Part shown: positions 16,424-60,290 of the stretch, one piece after another
Layout: each line of letters begins with the position of its first letter
Numbering within the stretch: position 1 is the first letter of the stretch
NCBI RefSeq assembly: GCF_000026545.1
Contig: NC_011601.1
Length of the DNA stretch: 64,000 bases
Reading direction: 5' to 3' (one strand)
Source: Escherichia coli O127:H6 str. E2348/69
Lineage (GTDB): Bacteria > Pseudomonadota > Gammaproteobacteria > Enterobacterales > Enterobacteriaceae
The notes under the pieces: generated by a model
What the model saw: only the letters and a program-made list of their open reading frames with translations
What the model was told of the DNA's origin: nothing
The model's database searches: none
Made by a program: the position numbers and the translations under genes

Positions 16424-16888
16424 ATGGAAAAGAAATTACCCCGCATTAAAGCGCTGCTAACCCCCGGCGAAGTGGCGAAACGCAGCGGTGTGGCGGTATC
16501 GGCGCTGCATTTCTATGAAAGCAAAGGGTTGATTACCAGTATCCGTAATAGCGGCAATCAGCGGCGATATAAACGTGATGTGTTGCGATATGTCGCAATT
16601 ATCAAAATTGCTCAGCGTATTGGCATTCCGCTCGCAACCATTCGTGAAGCGTTTGGCGTGTTGCCAGAAGGGCATACGTTAAGTGCGAAAGAGTGGAAAC
16701 AGCTTTCGTCCCAATGGCGAGAAGAGTTGGATCGGCGCATTCATACCTTAGTGGCGCTGCGTGACGAACTGGATGGATGTATTGGTTGTGGCTGCCTTTC
16801 GCGCAGTGATTGCCCGTTGCGTAACCCGGGCGACCGATTAGGAGAAGAAGGTACCGGCGCACGCTTACTGGAAGATGAACAAAACTAA
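16424..16888 (+). CDS. soxR: Redox-sensing [2Fe-2S] MerR-family regulator SoxR
   Basis: 154 aa; MerR HTH N-terminus and C-terminal [12 protein letters not shown] cluster-binding motif. Confidence 0.97.
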
Positions 16889-17021
16889 AGCGCCACAAGG
16901 GCGCTTTAGTTTGTTTTCCGGTCTTTGTCTTTCTCTCTATCCCGCTGGTACACAGGAGGGTTTCCCCCGACGTCAACACACCTCATTCGAGCACGTGGTG
17001 GAGGTTCCGGTTGGTGTTGAT
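16882..17021 (-). ncRNA. ryjA: Candidate small RNA RyjA/SraL, antisense to and overlapping the soxR 3' end
   Basis: K-12 has an sRNA of about 140 nt here from memory; a TACAAT -10-like hexamer on the minus strand at 17033-17028; hairpin + T-run at 16887-16917 serves as a shared terminator; boundaries approximate. Confidence 0.4.
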
Positions 17022-20666: not shown

Positions 20667-22630
<1,964 letters not shown>

Positions 22631-22708
22631 AGATTCTCCAGAGGTAATGTAGGGATTGTTTTAATTCCCGCTCCCTTATGGGAGAAGGTTAACGCTTGGG
22701 TAACCCTT

Positions 22709-22918
22709 GCCGAATGTAGGCCGGATAAGGCGTTATACGCCGCATCCGGCAATCAATGCCGGATGCGACGCTGTCGCGTCTTATCAGGCCTACAGCCGTT
22801 GCCGAATGTAGGCCGGATAAGGCGTTCACGCCGCATCCGGCAACCAGCGCCTGATGCGCCGCTGTCGCGTCTTATCAGGCCTACAAACCGTTACCGACTC
22901 GCATCCGGCAATTGTGGG
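22709..22918. repeat. REP/BIME cluster: two tandem units of about 92 bp plus a partial third
   Basis: Repeated GCCGAATGTAGGCCGGATAAGGCGTT...CGCATCCGGCAA...CTTATCAGGCCTAC palindromic units between yjcH and acs. Confidence 0.9.
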
Positions 22919-24877
22919 TTACGATGGCATCGCGATGGCCTGCTTCTCTTCAAGCAGCTTCTCGACTACGCCAGGATCGGCAAGCGTCGAGGTATCGCCC
23001 AGGTTGCTGGTATCGCCCGCCGCAATTTTGCGCAGAATACGGCGCATAATTTTGCCGGAGCGGGTTTTAGGCAGGGAGTCGGTCCAGTGCAGCACGTCTG
23101 GCGTCGCCAGCGGGCCAATCTCTTTACGCACCCAGTTGCGGACTTCTGCGTACAGTTCTGGTGACGGTTCCTCCCCGTGATTAAGCGTGACGTAGGCGTA
23201 GATCGCCTGACCTTTAATATTGTGCGGAATACCGACCACAGCGGCTTCGGCAATTTTCGGATGCGCCACCAGCGCCGACTCAATCTCTGCCGTCCCCAGG
23301 CGGTGACCGGAGACGTTCAGCACGTCGTCAACGCGCCCGGTGATCCAGTAATAGCCATCTTCATCGCGACGCGCGCCGTCGCCGCTGAAATACATATTTT
23401 TGAAGGTGGAGAAGTAGGTCTGCTCAAAACGTTCGTGATCGCCAAACAGCGTACGCGCCTGACCCGGCCAGGAGTCGGTGATCACCAGACTGCCTTCGGT
23501 GGCCCCCTCCAGCGGGTTACCTTCGTTATCGACCAGCGCTGGTTGCACGCCGAAGAACGGACGTGTTGCCGAACCGGCTTTCAGCTCGGTAGCGCCAGGC
23601 AGTGGCGTGATCATGAAACCGCCAGTTTCGGTCTGCCACCAGGTGTCGACCACCGGGCATTTCTCGTTGCCGATCTTCTTCCAGTACCACTCCCACGCTT
23701 CCGGGTTAATTGGCTCGCCCACGGAACCGAGAATGCGCAGCGACGAACGGTCGGTGCCTTCGATCGCTTTATCGCCTTCCGCCATCAGCGCGCGAATCGC
23801 CGTGGGCGCGGTATAGAGAATATTGACCTGATGCTTGTCCACCACTTGCGCCATACGGGCAGGCGTCGGCCAGTTCGGTACGCCTTCAAACATCAGCGTG
23901 GTCGCGCCGCAGGCCAGCGGGCCATACAGCAAATAACTGTGTCCGGTAACCCAGCCCACATCGGCGGTGCACCAGTAGATGTCGCCCGGATGATAATCAA
24001 AGACATATTTAAAGGTCAGCGCCGCGTACACCAGATAACCGCCGGTAGTGTGCAGCACGCCTTTTGGCTTACCGGTAGAACCGGAGGTATAGAGAATAAA
24101 CAGCGGGTCTTCGGCGTTCATCTCTTCCGCCTGGTGCTGATCGCTCGCTTGCTCAACCAGGTCGTGCCACCACAGGTCGCGCCCTTCCTGCCAGTCAATT
24201 TTCCCGCCAGTACGCTTCAGTACCACCACATGCTCTACGCTGGTGACGTTCGGGTTTTTTAGTGCGTCATCGACGTTTTTCTTCAGTGGAATGCTGCGCC
24301 CGGCACGCACACCTTCGTCGGAAGTGATCACCAACCGTGAGTTGGAATCGATAATGCGTCCGGCAACGGCTTCCGGCGAGAAGCCGCCGAAAATTACCGA
24401 ATGCACCGCGCCAATGCGGGCGCAGGCCAGCATCGCGACCGCGGCTTCCGGCACCATCGGCATATAAATCGCCACCACATCACCTTTTTTAATGCCCAGC
24501 TCGAGCAGGGTATTGGCGAAGCGGCAGACGTCGCGGTGCAGCTCTTTATAGCTGATATGTTTGCTCTGGCTGGCGTCGTCGCCTTCCCAGATGATGGCGG
24601 TACGATCGCCGTTTTCTTGCAGATGGCGGTCAAGGCAGTTTGCCGCCAGATTCAGCGTGCCGTCCTCGTACCATTTAATGGACACATTACCGGGGGCAAA
24701 GGAGGTGTTTTTCACCTTCTGGTACGGTGTGATCCAGTCGAGAATTTTTCCCTGTTCGCCCCAGAAGGTATCTGGTGCGTTAATAGATTGTTGATACATC
24801 GCCTCGTACTGCTGAGGGTTTATCAGGCAACGGTCTGCGATGTTGGCAGGAATGGTGTGTTTGTGAATTTGACTCAT
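22919..24877 (-). CDS. acs: Acetyl-CoA synthetase Acs
   Basis: 652 aa; [31 protein letters not shown]...; AMP-binding motifs. Confidence 0.97.
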
Positions 24878-33309: not shown

Positions 33310-33377
33310 GCCGGGGTTATCCCCCGGCAATGTGTTGATGCCTGATGCGACGCTTGCCGCGTTTTATCAGGCCTACC
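33310..33377. repeat. gltP terminator hairpin followed by a REP element
   Basis: Hairpin GCCGGGGTTATCCCCCGGC, then GCCTGATGCGACGCTTGCCGCGTTTTATCAGGCCTAC. Confidence 0.8.
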
Positions 33378-39622: not shown

Positions 39623-41770
39623 TTACGCCAGTGCCGCTTCGCGCAGGCGAGTTTTCAACTTGTTGTACTCGTCAATCACGTACTGCTCGGCGGCGCGCTG
39701 ATCGGCGATCGGCTCGACGCGCACGGCGCAGTATTTGTATTCCGGCGTTTTCGTAATCGGGCTTAAGTTTTCGGTAACCAGCTCGTTACAGGCACCAATC
39801 CACCACTGGTAGGTCATGTAAATCGCCCCTTTGTTCGGACGATCGCTGACCTGCGCACGGGTGATAATTTTGCCTTTACGCGAGTGCACCCAAACCAATG
39901 CCTCATCTTCAATACCCAGACGTTTGGCGTCTTCGGTATTGATTTGTGCGTAGCCAGGTTCATCAGCCAGCGCCGCCAGTGCCGCACAGTTACCGGTCAT
40001 CGAACGGCAAGAGTAGTGACCAACTTCACGCACCGTTGACAGTACCATCGGGTACTCGTCGGTGAGTTTGTCGATTGGCGCGACCCAGTCGCAGGTGAAG
40101 AACTGCGCCAGACCGTTCGGGGTATCAAACTTCTCTTTAAACAGATAAGAAGTCCCCTGATCGGCATCTGAAGTATCCCGGCAAGGCCACTGAATGAAGC
40201 CCAGTTCGCCCATTTTTTCGTAAGTCGCACCGTAGAAATCCGGGCACAGATGACGCAACTCATCCCAGATCTCCTGGGTGTTGTTGTAGTGCATCGGATA
40301 ACCCATACGGGTGGCGATTTCACTGATAATCTGCCAGTCCGTTTTCAGATCCCATTTCGGTTCAACCGCTTTGAAGAAACGCTGGAAGCCACGGTCAGCC
40401 GCAGTAAACACGCCTTCATGCTCGCCCCACGACGTTGACGGTAAAATAACATCCGCCGCCGACGCGGTTTTGGTCATAAAGATGTCCTGAACGATGACCA
40501 GTTCCAGATCTTCAAAGGCTTTACGTACTGCCGACAGCTCCGCGTCAGTTTGCAGCGGATCTTCGCCCATAATGTACGCGGCACGCACTTCGCCATGCGC
40601 TGCGCGGTGCGGCAGCTCGCTGATGCGATAGCCGGTATGAGCAGGCAGGCTTTCCACGCCCCAGGCTTTGGCGAATTTCTCGCGGTTAGCCGGATCTTTC
40701 ACGTACTGGTATCCCGGATACGTATCCGGCAGCGCGCCCATATCGCAGGCACCCTGCACGTTGTTCTGACCACGAACCGGGTTTACACCCGCATGCGGCT
40801 TACCGAGGTTACCAGTCAGCATCGCGAGGCTGGTCAGAGAACGCACGGTTTCCACGCCCTGGTAGAACTGGGTTACACCCATGCCCCACAGGATGGCGGC
40901 GCTTTTCGCCTGGGCATACATCCGCGCCGCCTGACGAATCTCACTGGCGCTGACGCCGGTGATATCTTCAACCGACTCCGGCGTGTAGCCTTCAACGATT
41001 TTACGATACTCTTCAAAGCCTTCTGTACGGGAAGCGACGAAAGCTTTGTCGTACAGGTTTTCTTCAATAATGACATGGCCCATCGCATTCAACAGCGCGA
41101 TGTTCGAGCCGTTTTTCAGTGCAATGTGCATGTCAGCAATGCGCGCGGTTTCAATTTTGCGCGGATCGCAGACGATAATTTTCGCCCCGTTACGTTTAGC
41201 GTTAATTACGTGATTCGCCACGATTGGGTGGGAATCCGCCGGGTTGTACCCGAAAACGAACACTAAATCGGTATTATCAATTTCGTTAATAGCATTGCTC
41301 ATTGCGCCATTACCGACCGATTGGTGCAGACCTGCAACCGATGGGCCGTGTCAGACACGAGCGCAGCAGTCAACGTTATTGGTACCAATAACGGCGCGCG
41401 CAAATTTTTGCATTACATAGTTGGTTTCGTTACCCGTACCACGCGAGGAGCCGGTCGTCTGGATGGCATCCGGACCGTACTTCTCTTTGATGGCGCTCAG
41501 GCGCTCGGCAACGTAATTCAGTGCCTCATCCCAGGAAACAGGTTCGAGTTTGCCGCCACGCTGGCGACGGATCATGGGGGTTTTCAGGCGCGGGGTCAGG
41601 ATCTGGGTATCGTTAATGAAATCCCAGCCATAATAACCCTTCAGACACAGGGTACCCTGGTTGGTTTTCCCCTGCGCTGCCTCCGCCCGGACGATTTTGC
41701 CGTTATCGACGACCAGGTTGATTTTGCAACCTGATGCGCAATAGGGGCAAACCGTGACGACTTTTTTCAT
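39623..41770 (-). CDS. fdhF: Formate dehydrogenase H (FdhF), selenocysteine-containing molybdoenzyme
   Basis: 715 codons with in-frame TGA at 41351-41353 (codon 140, selenocysteine); the two track ORFs 41351-41770 and 39623-41302 are one gene; N-terminal Fe-S cysteines CPYCASGC. Confidence 0.95.
41305..41350 (-). other. SECIS mRNA hairpin directing selenocysteine insertion at the fdhF UGA
   Basis: Minus-strand sequence immediately 3' of the UGA reads CACGGCCCATCGGTTGCAGGTCTGCACCAATCGGTCGG, a stem-loop matching the fdhF SECIS as I remember it. Confidence 0.8.
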
Positions 41771-53416: not shown

Positions 53417-53505
53417 TGCCTGATGGGCTACACTTATCAGGTCTACGTTCAGGTTATTTTGTTGGCCGGATAAGACACTTCATTAGCATCACTATCCGGC
53501 ATCAT
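53417..53505. repeat. REP-like palindromic elements between alsA and alsB
   Basis: GCCTGATGGGCTACACTTATCAGGTCTAC and GGCCGGATAAGACACTT...TCCGGCATCA motifs. Confidence 0.65.
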
Positions 53506-60200: not shown

Positions 60201-60290
60201 GGGTGTCGGATGCGACGCTGATGCGTCTTATCCGACCTACGGGGAGCGCATTTGTAGGCCGGATAAGGTGTTTACGCCGCATCCGGCACC
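60201..60290. repeat. REP element between phnK and phnL
   Basis: GGATGCGACGCTGATGCGTCTTATCCGACCTAC ... TGTAGGCCGGATAAGG ... CGCATCCGGCA. Confidence 0.85.

Follow-up and report, generated by a model that had tools for sequence, protein, structure and literature searches.

The spacer between acs and yjcH in the window, by which we mean the whole 64-kb stretch of Escherichia coli O127:H6 str. E2348/69 analysed here, carries a canonical BIME-2 of two tandem units that lies within the acs-yjcH-actP transcription unit. We assign this reading a probability of about 0.9, and no evidence contradicts the identification of the array as BIME-2. The role discussed for it below is a proposal only.

The genes acs, yjcH and actP all lie on the minus strand with acs upstream, and actP and yjcH overlap by 4 nt (Table 1). 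The gene names acs and yjcH were taken from the RefSeq annotation of NZ_CP059840.2, which was 100% identical to an 801-nt query across the site. The three genes are reportedly co-transcribed, as Gimenez et al. are said to have described in J Bacteriol in 2003. The acs-yjcH spacer measures 291 nt from the ATG at 22627 that RefSeq uses as the yjcH start (104 aa). The gap of 288 bp given by the first-pass annotation is obtained with the GTG at 22630 of the open reading frame list (105 aa) and does not hold with the RefSeq start. The array occupies 211 nt, or approximately 73% of the 291-nt spacer, and is wholly extragenic, with the acs stop codon (22919) on one side and the yjcH start (22627) on the other. 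The statement that it fills the gap was incorrect, because the array covers 22702-22912 only and is adjoined on its yjcH side by a single-copy yjcH leader of 74 nt (22628-22701). This leader was found in one place per genome, in 5080 of 5426 genomes. The minimum-energy fold and the centroid fold both place a small hairpin, CTCCC-TTAT-GGGAG, in the leader at 22671-22684, approximately 40 nt before the start of yjcH. Its five-pair stem was constant in the leader-bearing Escherichia alleles that we read, except for CUVET19-1396 (left arm CGCCC), and its loop is GTTT in E. whittamii. The RefSeq copy of MG1655 has no repeat feature annotated in the acs-yjcH spacer.

Tandem Repeats Finder returned a single array at 22702-22897 with a period of 91, 2.1 copies, 88% matches and a score of 315. 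The repeat search gave direct repeats 91-92 nt apart with 91-97% identity, and it also recovered inverted repeats of the kind that REP palindromes should produce. In a global alignment, unit 1 (22702-22793) and unit 2 (22794-22884) were identical at 83 of 92 positions (90%). These results and the anatomy of the array bear out the tandem BIME/REP array that the first-pass annotation had placed between yjcH and acs. Its two nearly identical units of about 92 bp proved to be 91/92 bp long, the three motifs that it quoted (GCCGGATAAGGCG, CGCATCCGGCA and CTTATCAGGCCTAC) are all present, and its partial third unit is real, consisting of a linker copy followed by the head half of a Y REP.

The head half next to acs has exactly the sequence found at the head of the first Y REP (22741-22753), and CGCATCCGGCAAT occurs as 13-nt direct repeats at 22741, 22832 (with one mismatch) and 22900. 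GTAG is found at 22716 and 22808, CTAC ends are found at 22793 and 22884, and the inverted repeats agree with an alternation of Y and Z2 palindromes. The first Y REP agrees almost perfectly with the Y half of the Rfam naRNA4 (REP325) consensus and has a predicted hairpin of -22 kcal/mol, and the hairpin of the first Z2 REP was predicted at -17 kcal/mol. The Z2 palindrome is 37 nt long with a GACGCTGTCGCGTC core. A scan against consensus sequences for Y, Z1 and Z2 labelled the REPs of the array Y, Z2, Y, Z2; the scan was a loose one by greedy fuzzy matching (up to 6 edits, with 6 at every hit), and its labels and their order alone were used. The REP tail motif CTTATCMGGCCTAC, with no more than 2 mismatches, occurred 9 times in the window against an expectation of 0.35, and none of 100 shuffles reached 9. 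The shorter REP elements reported elsewhere in the window, at 33340-33377, 53417-53505 and 60201-60290, were all three real, with the types and limits listed in Table 1.

Table 1. Positions of the genes, the components of the acs-yjcH array and other elements in the window.
Feature	Position	Strand	Remarks
actP, cation/acetate symporter	20667-22316	-	TIGR02711, 1144 bits
yjcH (DUF485)	22313-22627	-	ATG start as used by RefSeq
yjcH leader, single-copy	22628-22701	-	outside the repeat; with Shine-Dalgarno sequence
Left tail-side linker, AACCCTTGCCGAAT	22702-22715		12/14 identical to 22794-22807
Y-type REP 1, GTAGGCCGGATAAGGCGTTATACGCCGCATCCGGCA	22716-22751	+	GTAG foot, AA/CG stem mismatch
Head-to-head linker, ATCAA	22752-22756		5 nt
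Z2-type REP 1, inverted, TGCCGGATGCGACGCTGTCGCGTCTTATCAGGCCTAC	22757-22793	-	matches Z2 half of naRNA4 consensus
Tail-to-tail linker, AGCCGTTGCCGAAT	22794-22807		14 nt; joins units 1 and 2
Y-type REP 2	22808-22842	+	naRNA4 consensus match
Head-to-head linker, ACCAG	22843-22847		5 nt
Z2-type REP 2, inverted	22848-22884	-	naRNA4 consensus match
Third tail-side linker copy, AAACCGTTACCGACT	22885-22899
Y REP head half, CGCATCCGGCAAT	22900-22912	+	partial third unit; 6 nt from acs stop codon
acs, acetate--CoA ligase	22919-24877	-	TIGR02188, 1039 bits; stop codon 22919-22921
Single Z2-type REP	33339-33376
Degenerate Z1-like/Y-like REP pair	53418-53505
Z2-variant/Y REP pair	60204-60288
sRNA sraL	16881-17021	-	Rfam match above gathering score, 153 bits; unrelated to array
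Bacterial SECIS element	41304-41358	-	Rfam match above gathering score, 87 bits; unrelated to array

BIME-2 elements are defined by z2 and y REPs, which form inverted pairs with short linkers and are present in multiple tandem copies whose number depends on the strain (PMC3333891). All four parts of this definition were checked on the array and were found there. Since the array shows the complete set of these features and also matches the Rfam model of the REP325 unit, we identify it as BIME-2. GTAG feet and a mismatch in the Y stem have been described, both being required for the binding of TnpA-REP (PMC3333891); GTAG/CTAC feet and a two-base mismatch in the Y stem were found in the array. 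The allele of E2348/69 was present at an identity of at least 99% in 203 records of complete genomes, which indicates that the tandem structure is unlikely to be an assembly artefact.

We compared the array with the known BIME-2 arrays REP325 (yjdM-yjdN), sucC-sucB and tldD-yhdP. All of them are built from Y and Z2 palindromes in alternating, mutually inverted order (PMC3333891, PMC4550694, PMC6379681), and the acs array shares with them a tandem organization, an extragenic position in transcribed regions and a copy number that varies by strain. The acs array has two units, whereas REP325 has six, and with respect to transcription it is oriented the other way round from naRNA4. A BIME at a different locus, between nrdD and nrdG, has a Z2-linker-Y junction that is identical to 22772-22830 at 57 of 59 positions and likewise lies between two genes of the same operon. 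This BIME was found in some genomes only (e.g. O157:H7 strain 3384), and judging from their sequences the two elements share a linker subtype. The inter-unit junction 22772-22830 was also considered as a probe for multi-unit genomes and was dropped because it matches the nrdD-nrdG BIME as well. RRS elements were set aside as different elements at other loci.

Two other identities were weighed against BIME-2. The first-pass annotation had ascribed binding of gyrase/IHF to such arrays, and the latter would imply a BIME-1 or RIB/RIP element that recruits IHF. Some BIMEs do associate with IHF in general (PMC3333891, PMC1525189), which is the one point in favour of this reading, and BIME-1 and RIB/RIP elements resemble the acs array in combining a Y REP with an inverted partner REP. 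However, IHF is bound by the long L linker of BIME-1, an element that has a Z1 partner and occurs as a single copy (PMC3333891), whereas the acs array is tandem, its second palindrome is Z2 and not Z1, its linkers are 5 and 14 nt long with no long L motif, and the IHF consensus WATCAANNNNTTR had no match on either strand of the spacer. The chance that the array is a BIME-1 is negligible, and at the level of sequence this reading is already refuted. IHF binding should therefore not be ascribed to the acs-yjcH array; gyrase binding and cleavage stand as a documented property of BIME-2 (PMC6379681). In regards to Rfam, the model RF02564 (naRNA4) represents the Y-linker-Z2 unit, 77 nt long, of REP325, itself a BIME-2 array (PMC4550694). 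The two units of the acs array align over all 77 positions of the model and score 73.8 and 70.7 bits, where the gathering score is 59.5; their palindromes follow the consensus nearly base for base, and only the head-to-head linker deviates from it. The array RNA has the two-hairpin architecture that HU-dependent condensation is said to require (PMC4550694). On this reading, the two units would be genes for naRNA4-like nucleoid-associated non-coding RNAs that, like those reported for REP325, bind HU and bridge DNA cruciforms. However, the matches above the threshold are on the plus strand only, antisense to acs-yjcH-actP, and the transcript of the operon itself scored 51.3 and 47.7 bits, which is under the gathering score. 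Moreover, no promoter-like site was found on the plus strand in 22300-23200, and the 5-nt head-to-head linker is about 6 nt shorter than that of REP325. Within the 64-kb window the naRNA4 threshold was reached by these two units alone, which is consistent with no other complete Y-Z2 pair in the window having this spacing. RF02564 is in effect one Y-linker-Z2 unit, so that a match tells the type of repeat and not expression or HU binding. We consider RNA genes at this site very unlikely, and the array is to be annotated as a repeat, not as two naRNA4 sRNA genes, despite the Rfam scores above the threshold.

The mRNA strand of the spacer folded at -145 kcal/mol, compared with -99 ± 5 kcal/mol for shuffled sequences (z = -8.9), and the opposite strand gave a z of -8.0. 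Predicted single REP hairpins ranged from -17 to -22 kcal/mol, and composite Y:Z2 hairpins ranged from -45 to -53 kcal/mol. A long-range stem that closes the array on the mRNA was also predicted, in which GUAACCCACAAUUGCCGGAUG pairs with CAUUCGGCAAGGGUUAC (22698-22715 with 22900-22922).

Transcribed REPs block 3'-to-5' exonucleases, and many Rho-dependent transcripts have their steady-state 3' ends at such REPs (PMC6061677). BIME-2 is enriched in gyrase cleavage sites, and this enrichment, which is stronger in y REPs than in z2 REPs, does not depend on transcription (PMC6379681); a role as topological barriers has been proposed for BIME-2 elements (PMC10592627). By analogy, the most likely role of the acs array would be that of a stable mRNA structure that shields the acs mRNA and attenuates downstream expression, combined with a gyrase site on the DNA. 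The array hairpins on the operon mRNA would halt 3'-to-5' exonucleases and would favour premature, Rho-associated transcript ends, and the acs segment of the mRNA would as a result exceed the yjcH-actP segment in stability or abundance. At the level of the DNA, gyrase may cleave preferentially at the Y REPs, and the array may act as a local supercoiling sink or barrier. BIMEs reportedly cause Rho-dependent attenuation of transcription, a finding attributed to Espeli et al. in 2001 (cited in PMC1525189). REPs between cistrons are also said to stabilize mRNA at malE-malF and hisJ-hisQ, in work credited to Higgins in 1982 and Newbury in 1987. At those loci, as at acs-actP, REP hairpins separate a highly expressed upstream gene from the genes for membrane proteins that follow it in the operon; the parallel is one of position and predicted stability only. 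No REP element tied to yjcH or acs was found in the literature that we searched, and acs and yjcH do not appear in the searched part of the gyrase Topo-seq supplements (PMC6379681).

Two further explanations concern what the array does to acs itself. Stable GC-rich hairpins directly after acs might be the transcription terminator of this gene, with yjcH-actP as a separate unit. However, neither a T-run after any array hairpin nor a terminator-like site was found in the spacer, and the spacer gave no promoter-like site for yjcH, the only hit (22554-22527) lying inside yjcH. The co-transcription of acs, yjcH and actP that Gimenez et al. are said to have reported (see above) also speaks against a terminator, and partial Rho-associated attenuation is already contained in the preferred role of a protective and attenuating mRNA structure. 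A terminator is therefore extremely unlikely. The other explanation is that the array acts mainly on the translation of acs, in that a REP no more than 15 nt past the stop codon stalls terminating ribosomes and lowers Acs. A REP fewer than 16 nt after a stop codon is reported to down-regulate translation, according to a rule cited in PMC12306157. The half Y REP begins 6 nt after the acs stop codon and pairs with the far linker (22702-22715) in the minimum-energy and centroid folds, where the outer stem takes in the UAA stop codon. However, the first complete REP on the mRNA, the second Z2 REP, lies 34 nt past the acs stop codon, outside the range of the rule, and only the half REP is at 6 nt. 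The outer stem spans approximately 200 nt and would form only once the whole array has been transcribed, and in K-12 and E. albertii (CATCGGGCAAT) it has a C·C mismatch with no compensating change. The rule better suits the single-Y and ERIC-type alleles described below, in which an intact Y REP is approximately 8 nt from the stop codon. We regard a translational effect on acs as the less likely explanation and, taken for itself, as quite improbable.

We examined the state of the site in two systematic samples of 59 records each, evenly spaced down a ranking of approximately 5,400 records (118 of 5,426 complete E. coli genomes). The 801-nt region served as the query for one sample and the two flanks only for the other; both were drawn from the same record set and may overlap. 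Representative alleles at the site were retrieved and read directly. The spacer lengths found and their counts are summarized in Table 2. Over both samples, approximately 72% of the sites had one unit, 3% had two units and 8% had three or four units, whereas a variant REP accounted for approximately 10%, an ERIC-like element with a Y REP for approximately 6% and a single Y REP for one genome. Alleles with 1, 2, 3 and 4 units between identical flanks thus occur in complete E. coli genomes, in agreement with the earlier statement that the copy number differs among strains. Carriers of the two- to four-unit alleles include E2348/69, Nissle, NC101 and ATCC 11775, all of which belong to phylogroup B2.

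Table 2. Spacer alleles between acs and yjcH in two samples of complete E. coli genomes.
Spacer length	State of the site	Flank sample	801-nt sample
132 nt	single intact Y REP (O55:H7 USDA5905)	1/59	0/59
199/200 nt	one unit (K-12, O157:H7, O145)	39/59	41/59
209 nt	different REP subtype (GTCGGAT...ATCCGAC)	7/59	5/59
212 nt	one unit, longer remnant	2/59	3/59
225/226 nt	ERIC-like element and one intact Y REP	3/59	4/59
291 nt	two units (E2348/69 state)	2/59	2/59
382 or 393 nt	three units (AREA_504, Nissle, PBP5)	3/59	2/59
472 nt	four units (GN05505, FDAARGOS_1291)	2/59	2/59

The first-pass annotation had also described such arrays as potential hot-spots for IS insertion. That IS elements target REPs is generally documented (PMC1525189); at this site, however, none was observed. 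In 5400 of 5417 records the flanks were no more than approximately 680 bp apart, which indicates that large insertions such as IS affect at most 0.3% of the records. The ERIC-like allele was present in 336 records at an identity of at least 95%. In this allele, an imperfect palindrome of approximately 127 nt takes the place of the leader and the array and is followed by approximately 40 nt of AT-rich sequence and an intact Y REP adjoining acs. The palindrome appears to resemble ERIC/IRU; it is a dispersed element, found at a median of 7 places per genome with approximately 78% identity. The 209-nt allele has a REP with GTCGGAT...ATCCGAC arms in the Z2 position, and the same subtype is present in the window at 60204-60240. 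The existence of the ERIC-like and single-Y alleles indicates that the multi-unit array is dispensable.

An intact single Y REP next to acs was found in O55:H7 USDA5905, in E. whittamii and in a divergent Escherichia genome, with spacers of 131-132 nt. In these alleles the intact Y REP continues directly into ATTG..., a few bases short of the acs stop codon, which indicates that a lone Y REP formerly adjoined acs and that 22900-22912 of the window is what is left of it, its head half. The one-unit state was found in E. albertii and Escherichia sp. MOD1-EC7003. The cross-species comparison covers the four Escherichia genomes returned by a scan with a 20-nt pattern from the yjcH start region; the scan is not exhaustive, as it missed the E. 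coli type strain ATCC 11775, whose flanks match the window at 100% in another collection. The BIME unit at this site may be old, or it may have been moved by recombination. Changes in unit number would come about when the 91-bp direct repeats recombine or slip, or through the action of TnpA-REP, the transposase associated with REPs, and they would give rise to lineage-specific alleles with 0.5 to 4 units. The 13-nt repeats at 22741, 22832 and 22900 are plausible break points for the gain and loss of units.

REP and BIME sequences have been known since the 1980s, and published work covers the BIME-2 type, its affinity for gyrase and its copy-number polymorphism. The acs-yjcH array is an element of an already known kind that behaves as the literature describes, and finding it matters little beyond correct annotation. 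Several hundred similar REP/BIME copies are present in the genome, and the array may be present between acs and yjcH without having been selected for a role there. Lineage-specific spacer alleles could heritably tune the ratio of Acs to YjcH/ActP or the local supercoiling to different levels in different E. coli lineages, in which case the alleles with two to four units would be adaptive in their carriers; we consider this unlikely. The acs-yjcH spacer nevertheless offers a natural allelic series, comprising a single Y REP, one to four units and the ERIC-like element, in which the effect of the number of BIME units on expression within an operon could be measured.
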